In this document: positions 5,414 to 61,511 of the stretch, piece after piece | Layout of the letters: every line of letters begins with the position of its first letter | How positions within the stretch are numbered: the stretch's first letter is position 1 | NCBI GenBank assembly: GCA_003154195.1 | Contig: PMCS01000009.1 | Location: 19,014 to 83,013, forward strand | DNA: 64,000 bases | Source: Candidatus Omnitrophota bacterium | GTDB taxonomy: Bacteria; Omnitrophota; Gorgyraeia; Duberdicusellales; 4484-171 | Direction of reading: 5' to 3' | Position numbers and translations under genes: made by a program | The notes under the pieces: model-generated | Told to the model about the DNA's origin: nothing | Seen by the model: only the letters and a program-made list of their open reading frames with translations | Database searches by the model: none

Positions 5414-5478
5414 AAGCTATTTTTTAAAATGCTAAGGATTATGGTTTGACGGCATAAATCCCGGACGTTAAAAAAAGT

Positions 5479-5525
5479 AAAACCTTCGTTGGTTTGATTA
5501 TAACTGGCGAAGGTTTTTTGTTTTG
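5479..5525 (+). terminator. Candidate rho-independent terminator after phoU (operon 1)
   Basis: aaccttcg…cgaaggtt stem followed by ttttttgttttg. Confidence 0.4.
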
Positions 5526-5661
5526 ATTTATATAATTTCGAGGAAAAAAATTTTACATAGATTTAACATTGGTTTAATCGGAACATAATATAAGGGTAAT
5601 AGAATAACATTTAGATTAACTGGAATAATACAGGTATTGCGCTTCTAAAAAGGAGGTCTGA

Positions 5662-11652: not shown

Positions 11653-11767
11653 AATGAAACAAGGGGATTAGGGCATCGGGGGATTAGGGCATCGGGGGAT
11701 TAGGATTTGGAGATTAGGATATCCCGCATCGGGTTTTTTCCTGATTCCCCAATTTCCCAATTCCCAA
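11653..11767 (+). repeat. Tandem G-rich 16-bp repeats (GGGGATTAGGGCATCG x2 plus degenerate copies) followed by cccaatt repeats
   Basis: Direct repetition visible in the sequence. Confidence 0.5.
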
Positions 11768-13414
11768 ATGCTGATACCCTGGTTTCCTGATATCCTAAAA
11801 AGAAATTACTATACTTTTAGACTCGGCAAGGTTGGTATAAATTTTATGGATGAAAAATTGTTGTGGGAAACCAAGTTTTCCACATTAGATAAAAGAATAA
11901 AGGATTTTAGCCTGGGGTATCGGCAGAATATCGCGATCTTGGGAAATGACCAGGAAGAAATATCCTACCTTCTGGAAAGCTACCTTGAACAAAACAAATC
12001 TGACGATACTGTTTATATCCATATACCGGCTTCCTATATAAATAAAAAAGAATTCTTTAAACGAGTGGCTTTAGATATATTAAGCAGCTACTCCCATAAC
12101 GAAGGAAACCTTGACAGCTTAATAAACTTAAACAATCCCTCCTTAACCGCTACGACAAATTTTATCCGTAATACCCTCAAAAAAAATACCTTAACGCTGC
12201 TGGATACGCTGGAAGTTATCAATAAATTTCTGAACGAAAGTAAACGTAAAAGTATTCTCATCGTAGAGGACTTTTTAAAAATGGCAGAACTGTTCGGCAA
12301 CTGCTTCAAAGATTTCTCCAAATTTATAATGCTGCAACGCAACTGCATGATCATTCTTGCCTCTTCCTGCACAAGAGAAACACAAAGAATATTTTCCGAT
12401 GATTTAAACTTATTATTCGGAAATTTCGAAAAAATACTTTTGGACGAAAATACTTTTTTTGATAACTATATGCATCTGAAGCGTAAACTCCAGCCGATAA
12501 ATCCCTCGCCGCTCTTTATTTCTTTTTTTGTGAATATTCTCGGCTCAAACGTCATCTATTACGATGTCATTGCCGAAAAGATAAAAGCCGGCTATACCGA
12601 TAACGCCGAGGAAAAAGTAATCGTGGAAACGTTGACCAATTCTCTTTACGCGAAAGAAACATATTTATTCCAAAAAATGCTTAAAAAAGTAGATTTGCTT
12701 AAAGAAAGATTTAAGGATTCCGACTTAACCATAAAAATACTTATTGCCCTGGGAGAAGGTTACCTGAGAAAAGATGAGCTGGTTTCGTTAAACCTTTGCG
12801 AGCGTAAGCTTCTGGTTTCCAAACTTAACAAATTATGCGATTGCAGTTACGTTGAAGCGTGCGGCAATATTTATAAAATACAGGACCCGCTGTTTGCTTT
12901 CTGGATTTCACGCGTTTTCAAAATACATTTTCTGTCTTACGCCGGCAACGCCAAAACCCGGGCGGCAGCATGGGAAAAAATGCTGCAACAGGATATTTGT
13001 TTATTTAAGGAAGACTTTTTTAAAGATAAAATTAAACGGATACTGGAATTACTCTCTTATTTTAAAGACGATACTTTAAAAGTAGGTAAAGACCGCTGCA
13101 AACTTCCCTGCGTAGAAAAAACAAAACTTTTGTCTTATTCGGATACGAACATCCACTTCTTGATCGGCGAAGGCCGGGAAATAATTTTTGCGGGGATCAA
13201 AGAAAAAAATATCACCGACAACGACGTGATCGAATTTATTGAAAAGAGTAACGGCATCAAAGGCAAAGGCGTAAAAAAAATACTGATGTCGTTGGAAAAA
13301 TTTACGCCGGAAGCTCAGCTTATCGCAAAGAATAACCGGTTGATCACCTGGGATATAAACGAAATAAACCATTTGATGAAACTGTACAATAAGCCGACAA
13401 TCCCCATCAATTGA
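11768..13414 (+). CDS. Large hypothetical protein (548 aa) with no recognisable catalytic motifs; true start may be ATG 11846
   Basis: Long ORF with typical codon use; no Walker or other motif recognised by eye. Confidence 0.5.
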   Translation: MLIPWFPDILKRNYYTFRLGKVGINFMDEKLLWETKFSTLDKRIKDFSLGYRQNIAILGNDQEEISYLLESYLEQNKSDDTVYIHIPASYINKKEFFKRVALDILSSYSHNEGNLDSLINLNNPSLTATTNFIRNTLKKNTLTLLDTLEVINKFLNESKRKSILIVEDFLKMAELFGNCFKDFSKFIMLQRNCMIILASSCTRETQRIFSDDLNLLFGNFEKILLDENTFFDNYMHLKRKLQPINPSPLFISFFVNILGSNVIYYDVIAEKIKAGYTDNAEEKVIVETLTNSLYAKETYLFQKMLKKVDLLKERFKDSDLTIKILIALGEGYLRKDELVSLNLCERKLLVSKLNKLCDCSYVEACGNIYKIQDPLFAFWISRVFKIHFLSYAGNAKTRAAAWEKMLQQDICLFKEDFFKDKIKRILELLSYFKDDTLKVGKDRCKLPCVEKTKLLSYSDTNIHFLIGEGREIIFAGIKEKNITDNDVIEFIEKSNGIKGKGVKKILMSLEKFTPEAQLIAKNNRLITWDINEINHLMKLYNKPTIPIN

Positions 13415-15999: not shown

Positions 16000-16048
16000 G
16001 TTTTTCATCCGCGAAGCGGATGAAAGATATTTTTTGCGGAGCAAAAAA
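16000..16048 (+). promoter_or_regulatory. Conserved bipartite element, copy 2 (catccgcgaagcggatg + atattttttgcggagcaaaaaatat) ending at the ATG of the SPOR gene
   Basis: See 10806 and 47659; extended -10 tgctataat at 15957-15965 upstream. Confidence 0.4.
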
Positions 16049-16049
16049 T

Positions 16050-16667
16050 ATGAAAGGAAAACAATTATATTTTTTTGAGTCCGACGAAGAAAAAAATATG
16101 CAAAAACGCAATATAGTAAATTTACCCCTGGACACCCTGATCATGTTCTCAATCGTTATCGCGCTATTGTTTGCTCTGATGTTTTCGCTCGGCGTAGAAA
16201 AGGGAAGAAAAATAGCGTATGCCTTAACGGAAAAAAATGAAATAAAACATGAGGCCGCCGTTTTAGATACGCCGGCGCCTGTCGGCGCTTCAGCCCCTAA
16301 AAAAATAATTTCCTCGCCGGGTGAAATTTACCAGAACCTTAAAACGCAAATACCGAACGCCCCGCGGCTGCAAACGGCAAATCTTGCGCCGGCGCCGGTT
16401 GAGGCCATTGCTTACGATACAAATGAACAAACGGCCGAAGAAAATACAACCAATAAATACCTTATCCAAGTCGCAACTTTCATGAAAGAAAATGTCGCCA
16501 ATCAGGAAGCAAAAAGCTTAGAAAAAAACGGTTATCCTGTATTGGTAGCGAAAAAAGGGAAATTTATCGTAGTCTTTGTAGGAAACTTCAAGGGCACGCA
16601 AGAAGCGCAAAAAAATATGAAAGAGTTAAAAAAGAAATATAAAGATTGTTTCTTAAGGAGGCTATAA
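16050..16667 (+). CDS. SPOR-domain protein (septal peptidoglycan-binding), single N-terminal TM helix; ORF is open from 15990
   Basis: C-terminal SPOR-like block YLIQVATFMKENVANQEAKSLEKNGYPVLVAKKGKFIVVFVGNFKG. Confidence 0.65.
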   Translation: MKGKQLYFFESDEEKNMQKRNIVNLPLDTLIMFSIVIALLFALMFSLGVEKGRKIAYALTEKNEIKHEAAVLDTPAPVGASAPKKIISSPGEIYQNLKTQIPNAPRLQTANLAPAPVEAIAYDTNEQTAEENTTNKYLIQVATFMKENVANQEAKSLEKNGYPVLVAKKGKFIVVFVGNFKGTQEAQKNMKELKKKYKDCFLRRL

Positions 16668-21233: not shown

Positions 21234-21274
21234 CCGAAAGGATACATAAAGAAATAATCTTGGGAAATTCGGGG

Positions 21275-21496
21275 AAATTCGGGGGACAGCTACCATAATT
21301 ATCCTTGACACCCTGTCTGCTTTTGCTACAAATTCGGGGGACAGCTACCATAATTATCCTTGACACCCTGTCTGCTTTTGCTAAACTTACCCCATGCCGA
21401 GAATGGCCAGAGCAAATTCGGGGGACAGCTACCATAATTATCCTTGACACCCTGTCTGCTTTTGCTAAACTTACCCCATGCCGAGAATGGCCAGAG
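21275..21496 (+). repeat. Tandem array U,(U+V),(U+V) immediately upstream of and overlapping the RAYT start; U carries the REP-like motif GGGGACAGCTACCATAATT; V duplicates the RAYT 5' end including ATGCCGAGAATGGCCAGAG
   Basis: Three near-identical direct copies at 21275, 21330 and 21415. Confidence 0.7.
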
Positions 21497-22143
21497 TAGT
21501 TATACCCGATATACCCCACCATATAATCCAAAGAGGTAATCGCCGTCAGCCGGTATTCTTTTCTGATGCCGATAAAAGAGCCTACCTGGATTATCTTCGT
21601 CTACATGCAAAGCCGGCCGGAATAAGCATCTGGGCATATTGCCTGATGGACAACCATGTACATTTAATCGCTGTGCCTAGGCATGAAGACAGTTTTGCCG
21701 ATGGCTTAAGCGAATCTCACAAACGTTATAGCCGTATGGTAAATTTCCGGGAAAACTGGCGCGGCCATCTCTGGGAGGGGAGATTCAAATCTTACCCATT
21801 GAATGAATTCCATCTATACGCGGCGATAAGATACGTTGAAAGAAATCCCGTACGCGCTAAAATAGTAAGACAAGCCTGGCAATACCCCTGGTCAAGCGCT
21901 CAATCTCATGTAAAGAAGGAAAAAGACAGTATTGTGGATAATTGTTTTATCTCTGATGAAATAAAAAACTGGGCAGAATATATCGCCCAAGAAGACAACG
22001 ACAACGATCTGGTACTATTCAGAAAACATTCCAACACAGGGAGGCCGCTGGGGGATAATAAATTCATCGATCTTCTTGAGGGGATAACCGGACGCATATT
22101 ACACAGGAAAAAACCCGGCCCAAAGATGGTCAAGGACAAATAA
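21478..22143 (+). CDS. IS200-like Y1 HUH transposase / REP-associated tyrosine transposase (RAYT), copy 1
   Basis: MPRMARVVIPDIPHHIIQRGNRRQ…, HUH motif DNHVHLIAVP, catalytic Tyr in AIRYVERNPV. Confidence 0.8.
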   Translation: MPRMARVVIPDIPHHIIQRGNRRQPVFFSDADKRAYLDYLRLHAKPAGISIWAYCLMDNHVHLIAVPRHEDSFADGLSESHKRYSRMVNFRENWRGHLWEGRFKSYPLNEFHLYAAIRYVERNPVRAKIVRQAWQYPWSSAQSHVKKEKDSIVDNCFISDEIKNWAEYIAQEDNDNDLVLFRKHSNTGRPLGDNKFIDLLEGITGRILHRKKPGPKMVKDK

Positions 22144-22160
22144 TTATGGTAGCTGTCCCC
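22142..22160 (+). repeat. Inverted copy (aattatggtagctgtcccc) of the 19-mer directly after the RAYT1 stop
   Basis: Exact reverse complement of ggggacagctaccataatt. Confidence 0.6.
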
Positions 22161-22200
22161 AGAATTACCAGAATTACAAAGACCTTATAACAGTCCCCAT

Positions 22201-27400: not shown

Positions 27401-28926
27401 AGAGCAAGACGCAACGGCGATATTCCATGCAGTTGACTTGCGATGTCGGGAAATATTCCTAATAATACTCCGGACAAATTATTCGCTATGCCAAGTAAGT
27501 CATGAGTTTTCGTATGGGGCTTGATGATAAAATCAAAGGGTGGTAATTTTTTTTGCCACGGGATGTTTACAGATTTGGCTTTGCCTGGCGTTTTTTGGCC
27601 TGCATCGGGCGAAGATACGCTTTTATCCTTGTCTACAGCTCCTAGCGCTCTGCCTACTTCTTTACCTGTTAACTCTTCCTGCGTCAAAAACGCAGACCCA
27701 ACAGCCTTTAGTCTCCCTAAGCACGAATTTGCTGCCGGGTTTACGCCGACCTGCAAATTTAATTCCACGCGCATTGTTTCTCTAAAAGCCTCCGCTCCAA
27801 ACACCATCCCTCCAGAAGTATACCTGCGCCTTACCGGGTTTTTCCCCAATCGTTCTTCTTTCTTTACGCAGTTATATACTCCTTTTTTATAGGCTTCTAC
27901 GTAGAGGTTAAAAATCTTATCTTTTACGTTTTTGTCCTTTAGGTCTATCCCGGATATCTTCCCCTTATCGATGTAGGATTTATAGAAGGAATCTTTGAAT
28001 TTCTTACGGAACCAGACGGCGAGGACGAGAGAGTTATAGATCTGGCGCAGCGTGGCAAAGTTCTTGCCGTGGTTGACTTCCTGGTTGACTTCAGGGAGGA
28101 TGACTTCTTTGAAAACCCTTGACGCAATTTCTTCAGTTTTTCCTTTTTCGTCCTTCGTCCTTCCTCCCTCGTCCTTCTTTGTTTTTTCATCCTTCATCCC
28201 TCGTCCTTCATCCTTCGGTAGATTACGCTGCTGCGCCACGTAATCCCTCTCATGCATGACTTTTAAGCTCGCCTCGAGGACAAACGCCGTGTCTCCTTTC
28301 TCATAGACGACGCTCTTCTGAGGCATGACCCAAACCTTGTTATAAGTATTAACATCCTTCATCCCTCGTCCTTCATCCTTCATTACTGCCGTTACGCTGT
28401 CCCAGTATCTCTTTCCCAGTTCTGTTCCGGGGTAGGTCAAAGAAGAAACGAGTTGCTTCAGGCAGTAATCCTGGCCTAACAGATCTTTGCCGAGATCGGT
28501 CAGGGCTAAATTGTCTGAAGCAACACGTTCTCCTTCAAACGGTGACAGGTTGACCCATAACTCTTCCTGGGGAAGAGTTAACCCTGCCAGAAAATACTTG
28601 ATCAGACGGTCGGCTTCTTCTTTAGATACGTCATCTTTATTGGCAGTATCGACGAGGAATTCGATATTGAGAGGGTTTTTAGGATTAAAACGTAAGCCCT
28701 TCAAGACCGGGTAAGAGAATTTTTCGGATACTGAAAGGAGTTTGGTGGGTAGAGGGAGATTATAGACACTAGACGCCGGTTGCGGCGCGGGCACGACTTC
28801 GGATAAAGCCAGTGGGCTGAGCGAAGAAAAAAATACCGCCAAGGCCAGAAATACGGCGATAGCTTTGAAACCCGAGGACGTACGGCAATACGCCCCTCCG
28901 TTTTTTCGGGGGATTATTTGGGTCAT
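24439..28926 (-). CDS. 1495-aa multidomain membrane protein: TM, KDEG-repeat low-complexity segment, two GHKL/HATPase_c-like domains, second TM, transglutaminase-like Cys-His-Asp protease-like domain, TPR repeats
   Basis: N-box/G1/G2-like blocks (LDNAIDGI…VSDNGIGI…RYGGTIEFDT; HLVDNAVDAV…LSDNGAGI…GRGYATRS); KANCIGGTQLFLVLARAL…WTLHIA…VIVDLAN; TPR-like LELYRKALKSDPNN…. Confidence 0.65.
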   Translation of the reverse strand: MTQIIPRKNGGAYCRTSSGFKAIAVFLALAVFFSSLSPLALSEVVPAPQPASSVYNLPLPTKLLSVSEKFSYPVLKGLRFNPKNPLNIEFLVDTANKDDVSKEEADRLIKYFLAGLTLPQEELWVNLSPFEGERVASDNLALTDLGKDLLGQDYCLKQLVSSLTYPGTELGKRYWDSVTAVMKDEGRGMKDVNTYNKVWVMPQKSVVYEKGDTAFVLEASLKVMHERDYVAQQRNLPKDEGRGMKDEKTKKDEGGRTKDEKGKTEEIASRVFKEVILPEVNQEVNHGKNFATLRQIYNSLVLAVWFRKKFKDSFYKSYIDKGKISGIDLKDKNVKDKIFNLYVEAYKKGVYNCVKKEERLGKNPVRRRYTSGGMVFGAEAFRETMRVELNLQVGVNPAANSCLGRLKAVGSAFLTQEELTGKEVGRALGAVDKDKSVSSPDAGQKTPGKAKSVNIPWQKKLPPFDFIIKPHTKTHDLLGIANNLSGVLLGIFPDIASQLHGISPLRLALDYPVLWIGDDEYGTFQISLSGALDNAIDGIAKEATRQETEYKGMIEVSFSVEHDRLVIKVSDNGIGITVDTLGRLFSDEPVSTKKRREDETLGRVGTDVRNYYGDALVNRYGGTIEFDTYHHQDGAHVMRRYRSHNEVSVGHRITAGTTVTWTIPFGKKVAASPTLFRPERAVPLGSPTAAGSIAANGAASINFPIFTEKFPYMPPGALSTDARQIYLGNAGDKKIVADILTILRDSQLSSVDKGRVASIVGHLVDNAVDAVYERIDNITDDSVRGQVSGKAAISFFIQRDSQTGGTRVILSDNGAGIRKDIFQSWVNGEYRTSKPLGRGYATRSILDTAKGNFEISFVSERENDTGYQFTQYQNGKRIMDVSNENVIGTTVIITFPRDQLSPAAASPVDMSRRGLFLFGLLAGVAAVAGKVVKDKLRILGLTDAGHELLSSQPPQRSYRSEPITAANRAGDSEHEGALQNVRQQFEMRKQLEDFGYDKKSRQAIVHELVNLFPDLNTYRFSPGGDEAGRLKELYAAIKGKFNIESGVYPFDLNVVLEVKKANCIGGTQLFLVLARALRYDAIPMEVVRHNRRGWTLHIASLVRLPGGRSVIVDLANSEVGISQPFILYDLFHPYGVYLKANDAIRQDLPQQIRLGVNDGMIRSYLAVAHRDDAYITPYPEQLELYRKALKSDPNNIHAYMGISVTYTSIGIIHGAERFLTEGTYFNKALGALRKALELSPDSLDVLDGFRELYRDTHMPEKEAEVYARKIKIIEREIPAVYRNADEKISPTPFNEEKKGLVFDYLKLVELYHEIGEPNQERSAAIKALAILEKLVPTDYHYTGGKKGIGYSRAVSILEYYKNMADLYRLVGNKKQAEKYSALHRSLEEEVTPFNGQFMGRGNSPVATVKTKSAASPLPLTGSTDLTDTTGSTPLGGIDVTANNFNLETKGEGLDKAITSSPLNPNFDRLQFVITFMKDVSAKETIDELAGKAWGK
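28150..28390 (-). repeat. In-gene tandem 7-mer repeats (tccttca/tccttcg on the + strand) encoding (M)KDEG(R)G repeats
   Basis: Seen in the sequence at 28150-28240 and 28355-28390. Confidence 0.5.
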
Positions 28927-32853: not shown

Positions 32854-32900
32854 TCCCCCTCCCATTATTGGCAGCGGCCTGTCAAAAACAAACAAATTTC

Positions 32901-33010
32901 AACCACATGATTGCACAGATTTCACTGAAAAATATAAATTCCGATAATGTAAAAAACTGAAAATCTTAAAAATCTGTGAAATCTTGTGAAATCAGTGGTT
33001 GCAGTTTTTA
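32901..33010 (+). repeat. MITE-like ~110-bp element with terminal inverted repeats aaccacatgatt.cacagatttcac; copy 1
   Basis: Matches 49398-49509. Confidence 0.5.
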
Positions 33011-33165
33011 TATCGCTTATAGTCTATCAGCTTAAAGACAAACAGCAAACAAGATACAGCACTCTTTAATTATAACAAAACGGGCAGGTTTTGGTAGAGT
33101 TTTAGCTTTTTATTTGAACTGCGGAAAACCGCCAATTTATTCGGCGGATGCCCGCCTTGCCCGCG

Positions 33166-33247
33166 GCTTCGCCGTGAGGCGAGCCGAGCAAGGCGAAGCA
33201 GGAATGCGGGGCAAATAATTCCTGCCTCGCTCGCCTCACGGCGAAGC
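33166..33247 (+). repeat. Long imperfect inverted repeat (gcttcgccgtgaggcgagc…/…gctcgcctcacggcgaagc) forming a ~30-bp-stem hairpin; contains a CTCGCTCGC core
   Basis: Seen in the sequence; GC-rich within AT-rich DNA. Confidence 0.5.
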
Positions 33248-33352
33248 CGTGGGCCTTATAGCTCATCAAGGCGGGCCGCCGCAGTCTGGCGGGATCATTT
33301 AGGTGAAGCCGGCGACGAAGTCGGCGGTAATTCACTTATATTTTAGCAGAAC

Positions 33353-35886: not shown

Positions 35887-35916
35887 ATTTCATTTTAAAT
35901 TACCCTTTGGACGTTG

Positions 35917-35977
35917 GCCATTTTAAATTTTTAAAAAATGAAAAATGTGAAATGACAAATGATAATTTTAAAATGAA
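35917..35977 (+). repeat. Conserved ~60-bp AT-rich intergenic element (gccattttaaatttttaaaaa.tga.aaatg…tgataattttaaaatgaat), copy 1
   Basis: Near-identical to 46297-46357. Confidence 0.4.
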
Positions 35978-35980
35978 TCT

Positions 35981-40653: not shown

Positions 40654-40740
40654 TGCTTATCTCATTAGAATAATGATGACCGCCGATGAGAAGATGCAGA
40701 TGACCACAGATAAAATAATCAAATTCCCAACAGCTATCTG

Positions 40741-40775
40741 CGATCATCTGTTTCTTTTAATCCGCGATCATCTGC
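40741..40775 (+). promoter_or_regulatory. Direct repeats gcgatcatctg (x2, 24 bp apart) plus an agatgcagatg upstream copy between nadA and glnA; ATCTG-motif family
   Basis: Seen in the sequence. Confidence 0.3.
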
Positions 40776-40778
40776 GTA

Positions 40779-45490: not shown

Positions 45491-45664
45491 ATCGTTTGGA
45501 GAAAAATAAACCACGAAATACTTTTATCCTCAGATTATAGCGATTATCAGATTACAAACAAAAACAAGACCAAAAAATATCTAGTCCACAGATTACTCGA
45601 ATTGTCACAGACAAACACGAAATACACGAAAAAAATAATATTGCTTATGCCTATCGGTGATAAA

Positions 45665-45730
45665 AACTTAATTTCTTAATCCGTGAAAATCTGCGTAATC
45701 TGTGGATGAAAATATTTTTAGTTTTTAATT
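45665..45730 (+). repeat. Partial copy of the ~90-bp ATCTG-triple-repeat element (…aatccgtgaaaatctgcgtaatctgtggatg…)
   Basis: Matches the cores at 54254, 55111 and 58351. Confidence 0.4.
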
Positions 45731-46212: not shown

Positions 46213-46296
46213 AGACTAAACTCTCTTAGCCGCAAAGACACCAAGGCACTAAGATTATAAATGCGTTATTTAATTTTAAATTGTTAATTGGTCATT

Positions 46297-46357
46297 TGCC
46301 ATTTTAAATTTTTAAAAATGATAAATGCTCAATGCCTGATGATAATTTTAAAATGAA
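46297..46357 (+). repeat. Conserved AT-rich intergenic element, copy 2
   Basis: See 35917-35977. Confidence 0.4.
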
Positions 46358-46401
46358 TTAATTATTGGTTTTGGTGTCTTTGTGCATTGGTGGCTGATTC
46401 T

Positions 46402-47658: not shown

Positions 47659-47717
47659 TACACATTTTCATCCGCGAAGCGGATGATATTTATTTTTTTA
47701 CGAAGTAAAAAAATAAT
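47659..47717 (+). promoter_or_regulatory. Conserved bipartite element, copy 3 (catccgcgaagcggatg + ttatttttttacgaagtaaaaaaataa) ending at the ATG
   Basis: See 10806 and 16000. Confidence 0.4.
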
Positions 47718-48290
47718 ATGGAAATACACGAAAAAATAAAACTCATCCGCCGGCAAAAAAAACTAAAGCTCGCCGATGTCCATCGTACGATTAAAAAGAT
47801 ATTCCGGGATAACGCCGTGACCTACCGCACGCTCCAGCGAATCGAAGCGGGCGAACCGGGCGGCAAAGAAACTTCTCTCTACCAGGTCTGCGTCGGGCTG
47901 GATATCACCTCCCGGGAATTAAAAGAAAGTACCGAAGAAAAATCATCTCTCGCCGAACATACTAAAAGGTATAACCGTTATGGCCGCCATTACTTTGACA
48001 AAAATACTTACGCCGAGATTCTCACCGGCCGGCACGAACCCTTCACCGCTCTATTTTATTCGGTAAAAAAGGGGCAAAAAACTAAAACCGAGGTAAGTTC
48101 CGGCGATATAAAAGAAAAATGCCGCGAATGGCTTTTTGTACTCAAGGGAGGGATAATCGCCGTAGTCGGCGAAAAAAAATGGCGACTGGCAAAAGGCGAC
48201 TGCCTCTCTTTTGAGGGTCATGCCCCGCACTACTTCGAAAACCGGTCCGGCAAAGACGCTTCGTTTATCCTCGTCCGCTGCCCTAAATAA
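47718..48290 (+). CDS. XRE-family HTH plus C-terminal cupin-domain transcriptional regulator
   Basis: N-terminal HTH_3-like region (IKLIRRQKKLKLADV…), C-terminal cupin (…GDCLSFEGHAPHYFEN…). Confidence 0.7.
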   Translation: MEIHEKIKLIRRQKKLKLADVHRTIKKIFRDNAVTYRTLQRIEAGEPGGKETSLYQVCVGLDITSRELKESTEEKSSLAEHTKRYNRYGRHYFDKNTYAEILTGRHEPFTALFYSVKKGQKTKTEVSSGDIKEKCREWLFVLKGGIIAVVGEKKWRLAKGDCLSFEGHAPHYFENRSGKDASFILVRCPK

Positions 48291-49379: not shown

Positions 49380-49397
49380 AAAATTAGTTAAAAAACC

Positions 49398-49509
49398 AAA
49401 AACTGCAACCACATGATTACACAGATTTCACTGATTTCAGATTGATTTTGTATTTTTTTACATTATCGGAATTTGTATTTTTCAGTGTAATCGGTGGAAT
49501 CTTGTGGTT
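49398..49509 (+). repeat. MITE-like element, copy 2 (inverted relative to copy 1)
   Basis: Shares aaaaactgcaacca…ttttttacattatcggaattt.tatttttcagtg…tgtggtt with the reverse complement of 32901-33010. Confidence 0.5.
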
Positions 49510-49529
49510 AAAATTCATGGGGACATGCA

Positions 49530-49945: not shown

Positions 49946-50017
49946 ATATTTTTGTATTATTATAATTTGACAAAATATGATTTTTATGGTATATTTTAGT
50001 TGAAGGAGTTAATACTT

Positions 50018-50287
50018 ATGCTAAGAAAGCTCGGTCAAAACTATCAAATTGCTTTACCGCGTTCTTTTGTCGCCGCGCTGCACCTGCGTGCCAACGACTA
50101 TCTGGATATCGAAATAAAAGATAATAAGATAATTATCGAACCGCAGGTGATGATACCTAAGGCCCAGGCCTACTTCTACACCCCCGAATGGCAAAAGGAA
50201 GAAGCTTGCGCTGACGCCGACATAAAGAGCGGAAAAACCACCAAAACCAAAAATATAAAAGAGTTGTTTGATGAACTGGATAAATAA
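50018..50287 (+). CDS. AbrB/MazE/SpoVT-type antitoxin
   Basis: LRKLGQNYQIALPRSFVAAL…IEIKDNKIIIEP swapped-hairpin domain; RBS aaggag; ATGA overlap with the toxin gene. Confidence 0.65.
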   Translation: MLRKLGQNYQIALPRSFVAALHLRANDYLDIEIKDNKIIIEPQVMIPKAQAYFYTPEWQKEEACADADIKSGKTTKTKNIKELFDELDK

Positions 50288-50544
50288 TGCATATCGAAGC
50301 AACCCCTACTTTTATCCGGCTCTATAAAAAACTGCCGCCGGAAATCAAAGAACGCGCTAAAAAAATCCTGGAACTTCTGGAAACTAACCCTTCCTACCCC
50401 TCATTAGGCCATAAAAAAATGGCAGGGCAAACCGATATTTACGAAATCCGCGTATCCGACAACTACCGCATAACCTATCAAAGAATCGGCTCAACCGCGT
50501 ACTTGCGCAAAATCGGCACGCATAATCTTCTACAAAACCCCTGA
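50287..50544 (+). CDS. RelE/ParE-family toxin
   Basis: …YEIRVSDNYRITYQRIGSTAYLRKIGTH… RelE-like C-terminus. Confidence 0.7.
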   Translation: MHIEATPTFIRLYKKLPPEIKERAKKILELLETNPSYPSLGHKKMAGQTDIYEIRVSDNYRITYQRIGSTAYLRKIGTHNLLQNP

Positions 50545-53415: not shown

Positions 53416-54000
53416 TCAATAAAATTGTCCTGTAGGGGCCGGGCATGCCCGGCCCGTTAATATCATGTCTGGTTCGCGATTCGGTGATTTAAGATTTATT
53501 ATGTTTTCATTATCATCAGCCCATTTTGCAGGGTTATTAATTATGTATTCACGTATATTTTTTAATGATTCTTCCGTACGTATATGATGGTCATAGAAAA
53601 AACGCTGCCATTTAAATGAATTATTATTCAATTTATTAATTTGCCGCGAAACGGCTGACTTGAACGACCCGATTATAACCGATAAATTGTTATTTTTTTT
53701 ATTTTGATTAACGGGACGGGCATGCCCGTCCCCTACAGGACTATTGATTATTATTATCCCATGTATATGGTTCGGCATAACGATATATTCATCTAACTCA
53801 ACGTTGGGACAATGGCACGCAATCTCTTGCCAGGCTTTCCTGACGATTACTCCATATTCGTTTAAAACCATGCAATCACCTTTAATCTGGCCGAATAATT
53901 CTTTGTGATTATACGTACAAATCGTCACATAATAATACCCTGCCTTGGAATAATCATATCCTTTTAATCTGATTGCTTTTCGTTTCGGAAATTCTTGCAT
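53416..54000 (-). CDS. REP-associated tyrosine transposase (RAYT), copy 2
   Basis: KRKAIRLKGYDYSKAGYYYVTICT…, HUH MPNHIHGII, catalytic Tyr IREYIINNPAKW. Confidence 0.8.
   Translation of the reverse strand: MQEFPKRKAIRLKGYDYSKAGYYYVTICTYNHKELFGQIKGDCMVLNEYGVIVRKAWQEIACHCPNVELDEYIVMPNHIHGIIIINSPVGDGHARPVNQNKKNNNLSVIIGSFKSAVSRQINKLNNNSFKWQRFFYDHHIRTEESLKNIREYIINNPAKWADDNENIINLKSPNREPDMILTGRACPAPTGQFY
53429..53460 (+). repeat. Perfect 20-bp GC palindrome GGGCCGGGCATGCCCGGCCC (with cctgtag… flank) inside the RAYT2 3' coding region
   Basis: Seen in the sequence; self-complementary. Confidence 0.65.
53708..53739 (+). repeat. Second perfect 20-bp GC palindrome GGGACGGGCATGCCCGTCCC (inverted partner of 53429-53460) inside the RAYT2 coding region
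   Basis: Seen in the sequence; encodes an SPVGDGHARPVNQ insertion between the HUH and Tyr motifs. Confidence 0.65.
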
Positions 54001-54151
54001 TTTATTGCGTAAATTTTAGCCACGAATCACGGTGCGAAGCGAAGCGTAGCCTCCCCTTAGAGACGAATTACGCAAATGGGATATTTTTCCCGCAAAGGCG
54101 CCCGCCTAGCCAAGCAAGGCAAGGCTGGCAAAGAACGCAAAGAAAAAAATC

Positions 54152-54166
54152 ATGGTAGCTGTCCCC
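54152..54166 (+). repeat. REP-like motif atggtagctgtcccc (= GGGGACAGCTACCAT on the RAYT2 coding strand) 150 bp upstream of RAYT2
   Basis: Same 15-mer as the RAYT1-associated repeats. Confidence 0.55.
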
Positions 54167-54210
54167 GAAATTTCCTCTGTGGTAAATATTTTTATCTTAT
54201 TCGCGAGATT

Positions 54211-54300
54211 TGTGTTATTCGTTGTTAAAATCTTTCCCCGCTTTTTCTTTCTTAATCTGTGAAAATCTGCGTAATCTGTGGACAAAATTTTTTGTTTTCT
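54211..54300 (+). repeat. ~90-bp conserved intergenic element with triple ATCTG core (aatctgtgaaaatctgcgtaatctgtggac) followed by an A/T tract; copy A
   Basis: Copies at 55081-55160, 58307-58394, partial at 45665-45730. Confidence 0.5.
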
Positions 54301-54387: not shown

Positions 54388-54804
54388 TTATTTTAACTTT
54401 TTATTTTTTGTTTCTAAAGAAAAAACGAGTTTGGGATAATCGATAGTAAGGATGAAGCTGCTCAAAAAGCTTTTTACGCCAAGCAGCGGCACATGAAGGT
54501 TGGGCATGAAATCTATCAAAATATTATTAATTTCGAAATCATCAATCTTGACACAAACCGTATGGGAATAGGCAAGAGTTTTGCCGTTACCGGTATTAAT
54601 TTCTTTAGCAAAACCGGACTGTAAATCATGCCCTAAAATCGGAGCATACAAAGCCGGTAAGGCGCACTCATCGGCTCCGGTATCGATCAGGCCGTAAGCT
54701 TTAACGCTTTTGCCGGTATGAGGATTTTTAATAATTATCGCCAGCCATGGACGCGGGGTATCTTGAGGAGAGAATTTGGAGAAAGGTAAATTTCTTAAAT
54801 TCAT
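54388..54804 (-). CDS. Retropepsin-like (clan AA) aspartic protease
   Basis: LIDTGADECALP active-site motif. Confidence 0.7.
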   Translation of the reverse strand: MNLRNLPFSKFSPQDTPRPWLAIIIKNPHTGKSVKAYGLIDTGADECALPALYAPILGHDLQSGFAKEINTGNGKTLAYSHTVCVKIDDFEINNILIDFMPNLHVPLLGVKSFLSSFILTIDYPKLVFSLETKNKKLK

Positions 54805-54992
54805 TAGTAAATTTGAACCACATCATTTAAAGGGACAAAAATCACAACCGGTTCTTTACAGCCTTTATGCAAAGCTTTTTCGTAAGCTTCCTGGGGCGTA
54901 TCGCCGTCGCCGACAACGGTATTTTTCCCAAAATCTTTTATCGCGACATACCTGCCCCTGTATTTTTTATCTTTTATCAATACCTGCGTCAT
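54804..54992 (-). CDS. Small DUF5678-like protein (62 aa); start/stop-overlapping partner of the aspartic protease gene
   Basis: …YRGRYVAIKDFGKNTVVGDGDTPQEAYEKALHKGCKEPVVIFVP… pattern. Confidence 0.45.
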   Translation of the reverse strand: MTQVLIKDKKYRGRYVAIKDFGKNTVVGDGDTPQEAYEKALHKGCKEPVVIFVPLNDVVQIY

Positions 54993-55080: not shown

Positions 55081-55160
55081 ATAATTCTCCTTCATCCTTC
55101 TTGCTTTACTCTGTGAAAATCTGTGTAATCTGTGGACAAATTTTTTTCGTTTTATCTATC
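55081..55160 (+). repeat. ~90-bp ATCTG element, copy B (ctctgtgaaaatctgtgtaatctgtggac)
   Basis: See 54211. Confidence 0.5.
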
Positions 55161-55161
55161 T

Positions 55162-55968
55162 TTACAAATCAGCCCTGTACTTCGCAATCAACGACGGAAC
55201 GACCGTATCGGCGTTAGCAATCAAATCGGCCTGGGCGTCTTCGAATAAAAACGGACGCAATTCTTCCGCCTGCTTTTTTAATTCCGCCGGCGAAAAGCTC
55301 TTAACTCTTTTAGCAATAACCTCCAGCGGGTTTTCCTTGATCCCCAACGAAGCCAGGACTTTCCGGTTAATCGGATAATTTTGGGAAAGCATAAAAATTA
55401 TATCGTACAGGTGCCGCGCCCGCGTTTTTTTAACCAGGGCGTCGATTTTATCGGCAAACAGCGCGCTCTTGTCGGTGCAGCCGCAGGTAAAAATCTCCCC
55501 AAAGCCGTTGATTACTTCGCTTTCCCTGACGATTTTCCATTTGGGCGTATTCGTCTCAATTTTAATGACAATCCCGGCTTTCTTCGAATACGCCGATTTA
55601 ACATTATACGCTTTTTCGATTTCCGGAAAGATTAAATTCCCCGCGAAAATATTACGCCAATGCTTAAAATTAACATCGGCAATAATGTTAGAACGGGCCA
55701 GCTCGGTTTTTACCTTATCCAGCAAGGTTTCAAACTGCCCCCCGGAAAGCTCATCGCAGTTAAAATCAAGGTCTTCAGAAAACCGTTTTAGATTATGCAC
55801 CAGCCGCAGGTATGTCCCGCCGGTAAAATACAGATGCTTACCGGTATCGGCCTTATAAATCTCTTTTAAAATCAATACCTGCAAATATTCGCGCAATACC
55901 CCGCGCATCTTATTACCCGGCATGCCCCGCAGTTTTGCCTGTTCGGTTAAACTCTCATAGGTCAGCAT
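55162..55968 (-). CDS. AbiEii/AbiGii-family nucleotidyltransferase toxin
   Basis: …REYLQVLILKEI…LYFTGGTYLRLVHNLKRFSEDLDF… family signature. Confidence 0.75.
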   Translation of the reverse strand: MLTYESLTEQAKLRGMPGNKMRGVLREYLQVLILKEIYKADTGKHLYFTGGTYLRLVHNLKRFSEDLDFNCDELSGGQFETLLDKVKTELARSNIIADVNFKHWRNIFAGNLIFPEIEKAYNVKSAYSKKAGIVIKIETNTPKWKIVRESEVINGFGEIFTCGCTDKSALFADKIDALVKKTRARHLYDIIFMLSQNYPINRKVLASLGIKENPLEVIAKRVKSFSPAELKKQAEELRPFLFEDAQADLIANADTVVPSLIAKYRADL

Positions 55969-56569
55969 AAATCACCTCTTCTACGTCGATATTATACTGC
56001 TTAGCGTATTTTTCCAGTTTCTTCTTATTCATCCCCGCGATAATGTTTTTATCCATCCGCTCTTCGCCTAAGATTGCCCGCTTCTTCCCGCGAAAGGTTT
56101 TAAAATGGACAAAATCGATTAAAGCCTTTTCCGGTTCGGCAATCAGGACATCGAAATCTCCCTGCCGTTCCACATAATAACCGCCAAACGCCTCTTTTTT
56201 TATCGTCCGGTAAATAAATAACCCGTGCAGGTTCCTGAATTTACGGGTAGGCTTGGTAGTAATCGAAGTCACCGCCATCGATACTTCCGGAATAACGCTG
56301 TAATGGGATAAAGCCGTCTCCAGGGAAACATACGACGGCGCGTATAAGCGGTTGGCAATATGCATATCGGAAATAGCATATTCCTCAGGATAAATCAATT
56401 CATAAAAATCTCGCTTCAATGCCCGGATAAACCCCTTTCCTTTCCAGCGATAAAGCAGTTTTTTAAGGCTCTCTTTTTTCTCCCGCGGGTAAAAAGAAAG
56501 CACATCCTCGCTGGTGAAAAGATAGTATTTTTTTCCCGATAATGTTTTATAAAATTCTTCGAATTTCAT
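55955..56569 (-). CDS. AbiEi-family antitoxin / transcriptional regulator
   Basis: Sits directly upstream of and overlaps AbiEii; AbiEi-like sequence. Confidence 0.65.
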   Translation of the reverse strand: MKFEEFYKTLSGKKYYLFTSEDVLSFYPREKKESLKKLLYRWKGKGFIRALKRDFYELIYPEEYAISDMHIANRLYAPSYVSLETALSHYSVIPEVSMAVTSITTKPTRKFRNLHGLFIYRTIKKEAFGGYYVERQGDFDVLIAEPEKALIDFVHFKTFRGKKRAILGEERMDKNIIAGMNKKKLEKYAKQYNIDVEEVIYADL

Positions 56570-58306: not shown

Positions 58307-58394
58307 CGTGTAATTCGTTGTTAAATTTTTCTTTGCCCCCTTCTTTTTCTCAATCTGTAAAATCTGCGTAATCTGTGGTTAAAAATTATTGTTT
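58307..58394 (+). repeat. ~90-bp ATCTG element, copy C (caatctgtaaaatctgcgtaatctgtggtt)
   Basis: See 54211. Confidence 0.5.
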
Positions 58395-61300
58395 TTATTT
58401 TATCTCCTCCACTTCCCCACTATCAAAATAAACCAGATACCCCTTTATCTTCTTACCCGGATATATCTCCCCCACAATTTCTTTATATTCTTTTACCTGC
58501 TCGACATGCGCCGCGAAATTATCCTTCGAACTCTTAAAATCGATCAGCACCGCATCCTCCGCCACAATCAACCGGTCAATGCGTTTTAAATTGCCCCGTT
58601 TGTCGGCTACTTCGTATTCGCAAAAGACCAGCGCTTTATCCGTATAGAAAAATGGTTTTAAATCCGGCTGTTTCAATAAAGTGAGCGCCTTCTTCTCGTA
58701 AACGCTAAAATCATCAATTTGCGGAAATAATATTTTGGCATCGTTGATTGCCCGCGCCACCGCTTCTTTTTCTTTTCCCTTCGCCGGCGCCGTAATCCGG
58801 GAAAAAATCGCGTGCAAGACCGTTCCTTCTAAAATCACCTGCCGGCGGCACAGGCTTCCCTCGTCGCCGAATTCTTCGCGCAATAGTTTAATCCAGTTGC
58901 CATAACAGGAAGGCTTGATATACTCCGCCATATCGCTTTTAGCCTCTGACTTTAATCCCGCGACGGGCTTACCCAGCTCGACGTTAGCGCCAGGAAAAAA
59001 TAACCGGGCAAGGTTAGCGGCGTTAGCGCTCTTTTTCGGCAGAAAAGCATAAATCTCATCTTTGGCGCGGGTTAACGCGACATAGATATTATTTAATTCA
59101 TCGACGCAAGCCCGGGCGTAAGCGGCCTCATATTTTGCCGCCAGGGTTTCGCTGAAAAGACAATGGGCCTGGGTGATACGCAATAACCCTAAATCCGGGG
59201 CGTGAGCCTGGTCCACATAAGCCGACTTCATCTTACCGTCGGCAGGGTTGATGTCCATACGTAAAAACGGGATGACCACCACATTATATTCCAGGCCCTT
59301 AGCCTTATGGACGGTCAGCACTTTAACTGCCTCACTAAGCCTGGCGTTAACAAAAAAATCTTCTTCGGGGAAATCGCTCTCGAAAAACTTTAAGAAATCG
59401 CCGAGCCCCGGATAATCATTTTCCTGTTTTTTTATCACCTCTAAAAGCTTCATAAAAAATCCCTGGCTTTGGGGAAAAAGCCGGCCCAGTTCGAATTTCG
59501 CGTAAATATCCACCGTCAGTTCGTAGTTAGAAATAAATCCGACGCTGCGGAAAAATTCATCGAAAAACTTACCCCAGAGCGCGGGGTATTTTTTCCGGAA
59601 TAACCGGTATAGCCGCGCCTCCGGCAATTCCTTAGCCTTACGGGAATTAGTGCCGAATAAAAATCCGGCGGCTTCCTCGCGCGGCAAGCCGGCAGCGTTC
59701 GTAAAAATATCGCTTAAAATAAACAGAGCGAAACTGTTATCGTCGATCGGCGAATGCAGGAATTTGAGCAGATTCACCAGGGCGGCGACATGGGGATTGC
59801 GCCGGACATCAAGCGTCTTCTCCGACTCCACGGGAATACCCGCTTCAATCAACCAGGAACTGACCGCCTCGACGTCGTTATTATCGCGGCAGAGGAACGC
59901 GATGTCTCCCAGGGAAAAACGCTTCCGAGCGGAGGCGACGATCTCTAAAATCTTAGGCCGGATAAAATCATTACGCGCCTGGTTGCTGTCGGCATCGACG
60001 CGCTCGACGCGCACATACCCGCCGTTTTTACCGAAAGATACTTTTTGATGGGCATTACCGAAGGTATCGAGAATCTCCCGGCGCGCCTGGGCGCTAAGGC
60101 CAAAATCGTCGCCCGCCAGCGTTGCGGCTAAATTATCCCGCGAAAAGATGTGGTTGTTAAATTCAACGATTTCCTGCCGGCTGCGCCAATTGGTATCCAG
60201 TATCGAAGTTTGCGCGCCGAAACGGCCATAGCCACGCCGGACCTCGTCGAACAGCCGGGCCTCACCGCCGCGGAAGCGGTAAATCGCCTGCTTCCGGTCG
60301 CCGACGTAGAAAAACGTCCCGCCCGCGGAAAGAGCGTCTTCGACCATCAACTCTAAATTACGCCACTGTAACGAGCTCGTATCCTGGAACTCATCGATCA
60401 AATAATGCCGGTAACGCGCGGAAAGACGGTAATAAATCTCCGCCACGCTCAACCCCTCTTCGCCAAAAAGCGAACGCGCGAAGCGGTTAAGCTGCTCTAA
60501 AAACAGGACATCGTCCTTGCGGGAAAAATCTTCGAAGTAACGCTGGGCCTGCGCGAACAGCCGGACATAAGGGTTATACGCCACGGTCGCGTCAAGTTCA
60601 GCGAGGCCGGTGATTTTACGCCGTAGCGCCTGCCACTTTTTCACGAAACCGGCGGGCGCGATTTTCTTCTTATTCATCGGCGGTTCGTCCTGGGCTAAAA
60701 GCTTCGATAAATTGGCGATATCGAAAAAATCGTCGTGTTTTTCCAGGAACCGGCCGAGCCACCCGCCAAACGGGCCGTTGATACCCTCGGGAAGATGATT
60801 CTGCAGATCCTGAAGCTGGGCGAATATTTCTTTTTTCGCGGCAAGCACGTCTTTAGAGCCGCCTTTATAAGGGGCGAATTCGCCGCCGTAACAATTAGTC
60901 AGCGCGAACAATCCGCGCAGCATCTCTAAAATATTTTCTTTGGGGAACCAGCCGGTCCGCGCCTCGACAAAGAGATAATGGCGCAGAAACTCGGTAAAAA
61001 TTCCCAGAAGTTCTTTGTCCGAAACCGTCTCATCGACCGCTTTATCGAAAGCGTATTCGATATAATCGGCATAGCCGCGCCGAATGCCGAAACTGGCGGA
61101 ACGGCCGATATTTAAAGCGCAGCCCAAAAGCAAAGCGTTGATAAACGAATCGATTGTCTGGACACTGAAAAAATTATAATGGCGGATGAGTTCGTCTAAA
61201 ATCGCGCGGGCGCGCTCCGGCGATTCTTTTTCGGATAGGTTTAAAGCATTTAGGATATCCTGTTTTTCCTGGGGGCTGGTAAACTTATCCAGAGCGATTT

Positions 61301-61511
61301 TCTTCAAAAACTCTAAAATCCTTTCTTTCATCTCCACCATCGCTTTATTGGTGAAGGTTATCGCGAGAATATTGCGTAAAGGGCTGCCGCCCGGCGGAAG
61401 GCCGCGGTCAAAGATAAGCTCCAGGTATCGCTTAGCCAGGCAGTAAGTCTTACCTGAACCGGCGGAAGCTTCTACGATAAAAACATGGGCCTTTTCGGAT
61501 ACTTTCTCCAT
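58395..61511 (-). CDS. AddA-like UvrD/Rep-family helicase with C-terminal PD-(D/E)xK nuclease domain
   Basis: N-terminal FIVEASAGSGKT Walker A, UvrD helicase motifs, C-terminal …RIDRLIV…VLIDFKSS nuclease motif. Confidence 0.8.
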   Translation of the reverse strand: MEKVSEKAHVFIVEASAGSGKTYCLAKRYLELIFDRGLPPGGSPLRNILAITFTNKAMVEMKERILEFLKKIALDKFTSPQEKQDILNALNLSEKESPERARAILDELIRHYNFFSVQTIDSFINALLLGCALNIGRSASFGIRRGYADYIEYAFDKAVDETVSDKELLGIFTEFLRHYLFVEARTGWFPKENILEMLRGLFALTNCYGGEFAPYKGGSKDVLAAKKEIFAQLQDLQNHLPEGINGPFGGWLGRFLEKHDDFFDIANLSKLLAQDEPPMNKKKIAPAGFVKKWQALRRKITGLAELDATVAYNPYVRLFAQAQRYFEDFSRKDDVLFLEQLNRFARSLFGEEGLSVAEIYYRLSARYRHYLIDEFQDTSSLQWRNLELMVEDALSAGGTFFYVGDRKQAIYRFRGGEARLFDEVRRGYGRFGAQTSILDTNWRSRQEIVEFNNHIFSRDNLAATLAGDDFGLSAQARREILDTFGNAHQKVSFGKNGGYVRVERVDADSNQARNDFIRPKILEIVASARKRFSLGDIAFLCRDNNDVEAVSSWLIEAGIPVESEKTLDVRRNPHVAALVNLLKFLHSPIDDNSFALFILSDIFTNAAGLPREEAAGFLFGTNSRKAKELPEARLYRLFRKKYPALWGKFFDEFFRSVGFISNYELTVDIYAKFELGRLFPQSQGFFMKLLEVIKKQENDYPGLGDFLKFFESDFPEEDFFVNARLSEAVKVLTVHKAKGLEYNVVVIPFLRMDINPADGKMKSAYVDQAHAPDLGLLRITQAHCLFSETLAAKYEAAYARACVDELNNIYVALTRAKDEIYAFLPKKSANAANLARLFFPGANVELGKPVAGLKSEAKSDMAEYIKPSCYGNWIKLLREEFGDEGSLCRRQVILEGTVLHAIFSRITAPAKGKEKEAVARAINDAKILFPQIDDFSVYEKKALTLLKQPDLKPFFYTDKALVFCEYEVADKRGNLKRIDRLIVAEDAVLIDFKSSKDNFAAHVEQVKEYKEIVGEIYPGKKIKGYLVYFDSGEVEEIK

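Follow-up and report, generated by a model that had tools for sequence, protein, structure and literature searches.

ATCTG repeats in an Omnitrophota contig belong to a cross-phylum palindromic family and are probably derived from GxxExxY nuclease cassettes

A stretch of 64,000 nucleotides (nt) from the Candidatus Omnitrophota bacterium contig PMCS01000009.1 (positions 19,014 to 83,013), referred to as a whole as the window, contains an intergenic element of about 90 base pairs (bp) at window positions 54211-54300. A preliminary description assigned this element to a family with a core of three direct ATCTG repeats followed by an A/T tract. The window elements belong to a palindromic repeat that has a defined boundary and is found across phyla, and they are either copies of it without a gene or isolated arms. 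Elsewhere, arm, gene, and arm behave as one insertion unit that is wedged between housekeeping genes, and the “loop” of such full-length members is a small gene, usually one of the GxxExxY family. It is rather likely that the ATCTG elements are gene-less or decayed derivatives of this GxxExxY cassette family, analogous to repetitive extragenic palindromes (REPs) and their RAYT proteins.

The reach of the family is given by a 20-mer of the arm, AAAATCTGYGTAATCTGTGG: at least 120 genome contigs, drawn from about 15 phyla, contain it, while about 2 are expected by chance by the arithmetic used here. The preliminary description had named confinement to this genomic island as a finding that would count against it, and the spread over phyla disposes of that concern. 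The scan covered a collection of one genome per species, and the family counts given below rest on these contigs and on 121 arms among the matches listed. Hosts include Acidobacteriota, Bacteroidota, Chloroflexota, Verrucomicrobiota, Planctomycetota, Spirochaetota, several classes of Proteobacteria, and Cyanobacteria, as well as WOR-3, Hydrogenedentes, Sumerlaeota, Desantisbacteria, Nitrospinota, and one ANME-1 bin. Carriage by phage is rare (three viral contigs and one phage record). Other genomes hold about 0.02 extra elements per kb, and the gene strings of the window itself, which derives from an uncultured organism, recur identically in several metagenome assemblies.

A complete element reads NN-CCACAGATT-A-CRCAGATT-TT-CRCAGATT, followed by a loop and the mirror image, and the 20-mer normally corresponds to the right arm. 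Each arm (CCACAGATT-N-CRCAGATT-NN-CRCAGATT) is composed of two or three 8-nt CRCAGATT units, which lie on one face of the helix because they are spaced by 9-10 bp, and the loop is 5 to about 120 nt long. The units are conserved, while the spacer bases are often unlike between the two arms. Reverse-complement units are present within 160 nt upstream of 74 of the 121 arms and downstream of only 6, and adjacent arms are paired as (-,+) 37 times and as (+,-) once. The palindrome has a sharp boundary exactly 2 nt outside CCACAG. These two outermost positions vary between lineages (AT, AA, TG, GT, and others) yet remain complementary, with Watson-Crick pairs in 35/40 and 33/40 cases against 17 and 18 expected; at the third position outside CCACAG complementarity is at chance. 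Full palindromes fold strongly, with no strand bias (33 vs 35). Copies within a genome can share loop and flanks (loci L029/L125 and L051/L095); between genomes the arms alone are common. The elements are intergenic at 84 of the 96 sites with gene context, 56 of them between tandem, 20 between convergent, and 8 between divergent genes.

The gene associated with the arms encodes GxxExxY (TIGR04256; Pfam PDDEXK_3, PF13366), a PD-(D/E)XK nuclease family of about 130 amino acids (aa) with an intact catalytic motif, D...ExK. The G-x-x-E-x-x-Y and D...E-x-K motifs are invariant in this family, which has 16,342 representatives at E<=1e-3 and forms at least 16,000 clusters at 50% identity. In the one survey that lists it, PDDEXK_3 has no known function, and “multiple transfers” from one division to another are noted (PMC3424549). 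Among 120 loci, two arm pairs enclose a gene: in L023 it is a frameshifted PDDEXK_3, in L104 an ORF6N gene. Two further PDDEXK_3 genes, in Planctomycetota (L094) and Bacteroidota (L071), emerge when the collected loci are searched with a profile, and NCBIfam names both GxxExxY, TIGR04256. Their layout is left arm, ribosome-binding site, gene, and a right arm that overlaps or soon follows the stop codon. PDDEXK_3 is the sole recurring family among 54 small open reading frames (ORFs) adjoining arms, and besides it no gene family is common to the arm neighbourhoods.

Loci chosen independently of the repeat carry the association further. Loci L211-L219, L228-L230, and L232 were picked by protein similarity, not by the motif, and L231-L233, L235, and L236 through a neighbouring dehydrogenase alone. 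In all similarity-picked loci, which comprise a Pyrinomonadaceae ortholog set and a second context (L228), GxxExxY is bracketed by CRCAGATT arms. The Pyrinomonadaceae gene order is PolyA_pol, GxxExxY, acyl-CoA dehydrogenase. In this set PolyA_pol takes its final codons and its stop (...SADYAD*) from the left arm, GxxExxY ends in ...KSV* encoded by the right arm, and the next gene begins 4-30 nt on. In bracketed GxxExxY genes generally, the right arm contributes the stop codon and a C-terminal tail, ...KSV or ...KSA. In L232 the slot contains both GxxExxY and arms. In L231 it is occupied by a DUF433/DUF5615 pair, without GxxExxY and without arms in 5.6 kb, and PolyA_pol ends without the tail that the arm encodes. 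The upstream neighbours differ in L235 and L236, which have neither GxxExxY nor arms beside the dehydrogenase, and L233 likewise has neither there while a separate GxxExxY end with a right arm lies at the edge of the locus. Comparison of these five loci therefore indicates that arms and gene come and go together.

The slot itself deserves mention. Between PolyA_pol and the acyl-CoA dehydrogenase, it holds the GxxExxY cassette in L232 (1702-2190) and the DUF433/DUF5615 pair in L231 (1568-2189), where a DUF4160/DUF2442 pair also follows the dehydrogenase. Small selfish gene pairs seem to have a hot spot here.

A further sample, unbiased with respect to the motif, consists of eight GxxExxY genes found by tblastn of a plasmid collection. 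Four of the eight are flanked by inverted arrays of similar build with lineage-specific units. The eight genes and their flanking repeats are as follows.

Bacteroides finegoldii: inverted array of CACAGAGG x3, 30 nt, 90% complementary
Bernardetia: inverted array of CACAGAGA, 28 nt, 86% complementary
Sphingomonas: inverted array of CGCGAAGG, 25 nt, 92% complementary
Treponema: inverted CACGGATTCG, 16 nt, 88% complementary
Gemmatirosa: gene-less CGCGGAT x3 hairpin directly after the GxxExxY gene
Fusobacteria isolate ZRK30: direct repeats
Prevotella nigrescens: direct repeats
Persicobacter: no flanking repeat

The type of repeat covaries with the clade of the protein. Across phyla, proteins that have CACAGATT-type arms group together, with 60% identity between Acidobacteriota and Planctomycetota, and those with GAGG/GAGA-type arms form a separate cluster at 55% identity. 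In an independent check made on proteins only, the best 150 cluster representatives include at least 20 that terminate in arm-encoded peptides, for example KSAKSAD, SVKSV, and ICVICEICG, which are translations of ATCTGYG repeats.

Within the window, the core AATCTGTGAAAATCTGCGTAATCTGTGGA is located at 54254-54282; it recurs with 1 mismatch at 45678-45706 and with 2 mismatches at 55108-55136. Allowing three mismatches or fewer, the core matches the window 3 times and 100 shuffles 0 times. A fourth core copy at 58349-58395 has one base fewer in its first unit. The window has 18 AATCTGYG units, where 3.6 are expected and shuffles reach 8 at most. An arm profile was built from other genomes and then run against the window, where its strong arms (E 3e-11 to 1e-8) are 45677-45715, 54254-54290, 55108-55144, and 58358-58387. 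All four are on the plus strand between minus-strand genes, 15-105 nt past the stop codon of the upstream gene. An A/T tract follows TGTGG in every window copy, and the family-wide consensus there is A-T-A-A-A and then T-rich. These results bear out the preliminary description of a dispersed intergenic family with three direct repeats about one helical turn apart, an A/T tract after the core, and a position between minus-strand genes. Its core positions hold, except that the third copy is at 55108-55136 and not 55111-55137, and the single orientation it gave for all copies applies only to the four strong ones. Reverse-strand arms lie at 45566-45611, 49397-49438, and 32891-32931, and each pairs with a plus-strand arm into a palindrome. 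The window elements are listed below.

32891-33009: divergent full palindromic element; arms AACCACATGATTGCACAGATTTCACTGA and mirror image; weak profile arms on both strands; hairpin z-score -4.26
40688-40776: degenerate variant with CAGATGA/TCATCTG units; left-type units 40692-40716, right-type 40741-40776; one 2-mismatch match
45527-45560, plus strand: extra left-type units CTCAGATTA, TAGCGATTA, and TCAGATTAC, read from the sequence, just outside the palindrome that follows
45566-45725: full palindromic element; left arm 45574-45611 (reverse complement), 68-nt loop, right arm 45677-45715
49397-49519: divergent full palindromic element; profile E=0.003; hairpin z-score -3.64
54212-54232, plus strand: GTGTTATTCGTTGTTAAAATC, a decayed tandem copy of the arm; local alignment with its own arm marginal, p=0.048
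54252-54300, plus strand: flagged copy, solitary right arm and A/T tract; three ATCTG units at 54254-54282; profile E=3e-11
55106-55152, plus strand: solitary right arm and A/T tract; profile E=3.8e-11
58308-58395, plus strand: decayed arm at 58308-58326, then in tandem an intact solitary right arm at 58349-58380 and A/T tract; profile E=1.2e-8

The element at 45566-45725 has 46-nt arms that are 72% complementary (arm profile E=2.6e-11 and 0.04; hairpin z-score -3.43), and 49397-49519 is an inverted copy of 32891-33009 (69 nt, 87% complementary). The arms that define a cassette, which are inverted, contain at least two CRCAGAT-type units each at 9-10-bp spacing, and end at a sharp outer boundary, are present in all three of these palindromes; the flagged copy is one-armed. 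Related ATCTG-rich stretches that had been pointed out earlier are real at 40688-40776 and 45527-45560, where they are divergent variants. Adjoining the palindrome at 32891-33009 is a G+C-rich inverted repeat at 33159-33254 (GCCCGCGGCTTCGCCGTGAGGCGAGC; 26-nt arms, 96% complementary, 44 nt apart) that may belong to another repeat family.

The solitary arms are found close to gene ends. The flagged copy lies between two of them: the minus-strand gene 54388-54804 stops 105 nt ahead of it, and a RAYT gene begins 252 nt beyond it, at 54000. The arm at 55106-55152 is 25 nt past the stop of the AbiEii gene (55162-55968, minus strand), and the arm at 58349-58380 ends 15 nt past the stop of a UvrD/AddA-like gene (58395-61511, minus strand). 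These arms are unfolded, with z-scores of -0.58 (54252-54300), +1.06 (55106-55152), and +1.5 (58308-58395). The conserved upstream sequence of the preliminary description, tgt.attcgttgttaaa, is convincing in two copies only and corresponds to a decayed second arm in tandem. The block at 54212-54232 is homologous to that at 58308-58326, which has a local alignment score of 15 against a shuffle maximum of 12, and local alignment detects no decayed tandem arm beside copy 55108. The window holds only gene-less derivatives, namely three hairpin-forming copies and three solitary arms, two of them with a decayed tandem arm. The flagged 90-bp copy is a decayed arm and probably inert.

A mechanism can be proposed from this layout. 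The phased units would be bound by a protein that recognises their sequence, and the most probable candidate is the GxxExxY nuclease of full-length members elsewhere in the genome. The nuclease may cut at or near the sharp outer boundary, and the element would then be moved or copied. The short gene-less palindromes would be non-autonomous and depend on nuclease supplied in trans, as REPs depend on RAYT and miniature inverted-repeat transposable elements (MITEs) on their parent insertion sequence, while solitary arms would be dead remnants that no longer move. Pairing of the arms in the transcript, followed by processing, may occur as well. Possible side effects on the host are stems in DNA or messenger RNA (mRNA), the supply of stop codons, and occasional promoter juxtaposition. 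A broader proposal is put forward tentatively: GxxExxY proteins may be site-specific nucleases of an unrecognised class of mobile cassette, with phased 8-nt arrays as ends and REP-like gene-less derivatives in more than a dozen phyla, constituting a second, independent PD-(D/E)XK “REPtron” beside that of HUH proteins.

Several observations weigh against derivation from GxxExxY cassettes. No GxxExxY gene is found in the 64-kb window by profile search of its six-frame translation. Target-site duplications are not found at any offset: direct repeats of 3-8 nt are not enriched at offsets 0-4, and the sole direct-repeat excess is AT at offset 0, which is a self-complementary dinucleotide. There is no clean filled/empty pair for a gene-less copy, and in the one comparison available, L072 with L078, the spacer has been replaced and no precise insertion is seen. 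The solitary arms of the window aim their outer end at the upstream stop codon, which elsewhere is a minority arrangement (7/37 solitary arms). The L104 arm pair (5283-5993, Verrucomicrobiota) encloses an opposite-strand ORF6N gene (PF10543) in place of GxxExxY, which means that the arms are able to carry different genes, and GxxExxY itself could be cargo of the arms. Inverted arrays are missing at three of the eight plasmid GxxExxY genes, two having direct repeats and one none. The AlphaFold model of GxxExxY is too poor to use, with a predicted local distance difference test score of 47.5. Apart from these observations, the PDB contains no GxxExxY relative by sequence, and a long element with a classical transposase between distant arms is absent from the 811 kb around arms.

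Among other explanations, stems formed at the RNA level are unlikely, though the most probable of these. The arms could pair in a polycistronic transcript and the duplex be cut by ribonuclease III (RNase III), so that the cassette is excised or insulated and gene-less copies act as inter-cistronic processing or stability hairpins, a role that is compatible with one at the DNA level. Such a role is consistent with cassettes that sit within tightly packed strings of co-oriented genes with 4-30 nt spacers, with variable arm positions that remain complementary, and with the strong folding of full palindromes. However, folding is equal on both strands, so no transcribed strand is marked; spacers often mismatch while units are conserved, which is a better fit to protein recognition of the units; the flagged copy and two others are solitary and unable to pair; and no Rfam family corresponds. 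Intrinsic terminators, possibly bidirectional, that share sequence by happenstance would account for the gene 3' ends that face 76 of the 84 intergenic sites (at least one each) and for the A-runs and T-runs that flank some copies, notably in Pyrinomonadaceae. T-runs of at least 4 nt follow only 33 of 121 arms, however, with A-runs at 32 of 121, the flagged copy is stemless, and a terminator scan finds none at arms. Neither identity of a 20-mer across phyla nor arms that enclose genes would be expected of terminators, and this explanation is very improbable. The phased repeats might instead be an operator for a transcription factor, such as an OmpR/PhoB-type response regulator, or a promoter or UP element for the downstream minus-strand gene, which carries little probability, if marginally more than the terminators. 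Three direct repeats at 9-10-bp spacing suit such a site, as do a good TTGACA-16-TAGAAT promoter-like site at 55066-55039 (minus strand), 42 nt downstream of copy 55108 in the gene sense, TTAACA at the equivalent place in two other copies, and the many solitary arms elsewhere that end 10-35 nt before a start codon. The inverted arm pairs nevertheless lie beside unrelated housekeeping genes in about 15 phyla with no shared neighbour family, sites between divergent genes are under-represented (8/84), and orientation relative to genes elsewhere is mixed and opposite to that in the window. The regional promoter scan (11 vs 9.2 in shuffles) is not above background, and arms overlap coding ends and supply stop codons. 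The A/T tract is on the far side of the repeats and does not adjoin a -35 element. Local co-option as a promoter at copy 55108 is possible.

Two explanations call on a known protein. Mobilisation as REPs or REPINs by a RAYT, for example by the product of the gene 252 nt downstream of the flagged copy, is suggested by the subclass 2.4 RAYT gene at 53416-54000, by the REP-like lifestyle of the repeat (palindromic, extragenic, in many copies), and by the published REP of a subclass 2.7 RAYT of Ignavibacterium album, with the stem CACAGATT (PMC6006769 supplement). The window RAYT, however, has canonical REPs of its own, GTAGGGGNCGGGCATGCCCGNCCC, one within the gene and one at its 3' end. Eighty homologous RAYT loci (392 kb) contain one stray arm and units at chance frequency; no Y1 transposase is found by tblastn or hidden Markov model search in 811 kb around 120 arms; and the arms are without a GTAG or CGTC foot, their outer end being NN-CCACAG with NN variable. 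The RAYT link is largely refuted by these GTAG REPs, the armless RAYT loci, and the lack of Y1 near arms, which leaves it a very slim chance. The slimmest belongs to clusters of DnaA boxes (TTATNCACA) that titrate DnaA, a universal protein that could underlie conservation across phyla. The units do read TGTG-N-A-W-W-W, and the consensus of the outer unit with its flank is TGTGGATAA. Yet a perfect box follows TGTGG in only 9/121 arms, as many as the single-position frequencies predict when multiplied, conservation is strongest in the AATC ahead of each TGTG, which is outside the DnaA box, and the sister-family units CACAGAGG and CGCGAAGG are not DnaA boxes. Derivation from GxxExxY cassettes is preferred. 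Among the functions considered in the preliminary description, a recombination site comes closest, since the arms are those of a palindromic REP/MITE-like element that, when full-length, encloses a PD-(D/E)XK nuclease gene, while operator and promoter or UP element lack support as a general function.

For the annotation of the window, the ATCTG blocks are to be treated as repeat elements and not as regulatory sites of the flanking genes. If the proposal is correct, it provides a first testable function for the very large orphan family TIGR04256/PF13366 (the term “GxxExxY” is scarce in searchable literature), adds a second nuclease-plus-repeat system beside RAYT/REP, and accounts for spurious small ORFs (...KSAKSAD..., ...ICVICG...) in genomes of Bacteroidota, Acidobacteriota, Chloroflexota, and the Planctomycetes-Verrucomicrobia-Chlamydiae (PVC) group. 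The system combines a nuclease gene with dispersed cognate palindromes, and neither these repeats nor their link to GxxExxY could be found in Rfam or in the searchable literature, a coverage that leaves out most subscription journals. Rfam gives no match for the window at the gathering score or at the E-value threshold, and the full hairpins of 8 loci return microRNA-precursor noise far below threshold. No annotation of the hairpins is found in a plasmid database. Literature searches with sequence strings of 13-18 nt return nothing or unrelated primers, and keyword searches return nothing on the element.

Other repeats and gene groups of the window are recorded here in their own right. A/T-rich overlapping palindromes at 35889-35978 and 46266-46361 have a 57-nt direct repeat in common (82% identity, TTTAAATTTTTAAAAAATGA...GATAATTTTAAAATGAAT), and each is just past the stop codon of a minus-strand gene. 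A 60-nt repeat at 16002-16061 and 47665-47724 (77% identity) consists of a pair of small hairpins, CATCCGCGAAGCGGATG followed by TTTTTTGCGGAGCAAAAAA, with an ATG at its end. Two plus-strand genes lie downstream, for which the repeat may serve as a common terminator or leader module. At 28128-28381 a 36-nt pyrimidine-rich repeat (CATCCTTCATCCCTCGTCCTTC...) is present in four copies in 250 nt. Small modules of the defence or addiction type are packed between AddA-like and AddB-like genes at 50000-50544, 54388-54992, and 55162-56569 (MazE/ParE-like; DUF5678 with a retropepsin-like aspartyl protease; AbiEi/AbiEii). Metagenome contigs that are otherwise identical (L001-L004) differ in the lengths of their AbiEii and RAYT genes. 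Cumulative GC skew climbs to about 11 kb and then drops steadily to the window end, which coincides with the switch from plus- to minus-strand genes (about 11000-12000).

Comparison with known systems places the ATCTG family beside several kinds of repeat. Intervening sequences of 23S ribosomal RNA (rRNA) combine a small selfish ORF with stem-forming inverted repeats in insertion-tolerant rRNA helices; their proteins are usually four-helix bundles, and they are excised by RNase III. No rRNA is involved in the ATCTG elements. MITEs such as Correia/CREE, ERIC, and Nezha resemble the family in their terminal inverted repeats, a non-coding core of 60-160 nt, dispersed intergenic positions, and longer gene-carrying relatives with the same ends. 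As in MITEs, same-genome copies share loop and flanks, and the arms are inverted in three window elements, while the flagged copy is one-armed. Unlike MITEs, the ATCTG family has no target-site duplication, the gene enclosed by its arms is no known transposase, its loops are free to differ between genomes, and its ends are phased direct repeats. The longer relatives with the same arms encode GxxExxY or ORF6N.

A REPtron is the combination of REP or REPIN with RAYT (Nunvar 2010; Bertels & Rainey 2011; Quentin 2018, PMC6006769). The ATCTG family is similar in its short multicopy extragenic palindromes, which occur as singlets and inverted doublets, in its repeat-flanked gene for a small nuclease-type protein, in the covariation of repeat and protein clade, and in the absence of target-site duplication. 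It differs in that its protein is of the PD-(D/E)XK fold (GxxExxY) and not an HUH/Y1 transposase; in that an arm is two or three direct 8-nt units, where a REP is a GTAG-tagged imperfect hairpin; and in that one unit sequence spans about 15 phyla, where REPs are lineage-specific. The family fails the defining tests of both REPtron and MITE, having no GTAG foot, Y1 transposase, target-site duplication, or known transposase. The window's own RAYT gene (53416-54000, minus strand; 194 aa) is of subclass 2.4, with NHIH, WQ, and YIxNNP motifs (classification after PMC6006769), and its closest homologues are labelled Candidatus Omnitrophota. Its GTAG-tagged REP is present twice, inverted, at 53423-53461 and 53707-53745, and the 3'-end copy overlaps the start of the AddB-like gene. 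A “REP inserted in tnpA” is a hallmark of RAYT subclass 2.4 (PMC6006769).

In a TIRtron, the gene of a TIRYT (subclass 2.1 Y1 transposase) lies between GGGGWSAS inverted repeats (Di Nocera 2013, PMC3733652). The window contains one at 21273-22169, with a 221-aa TIRYT/subclass 2.1 Y1 transposase gene at 21478-22143 (plus strand) and the inverted repeat AATTCGGGGGACAGCTACCATAATTAT, which fits GGGGWSAS. Its upstream repeat is present in triplicate owing to a tandem duplication of 84 nt, which also takes in a TTGACA...TAAACT promoter-like site and the opening codons of the gene, and a solo TIRtron repeat at 54148-54179 is 75 nt from the flagged ATCTG element. A link of the arms to TIRYT was rejected: the window TIRYT has GGGGACAG inverted repeats of its own, and no TIRYT is found near arms. 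The protein family and the repeat (AATTCGGGGGACAGCTACC) differ from those of the ATCTG family, whose arms are not found at the window TIRtron. In both, inverted repeats bracket a small nuclease-type gene and recur as dispersed solo copies.

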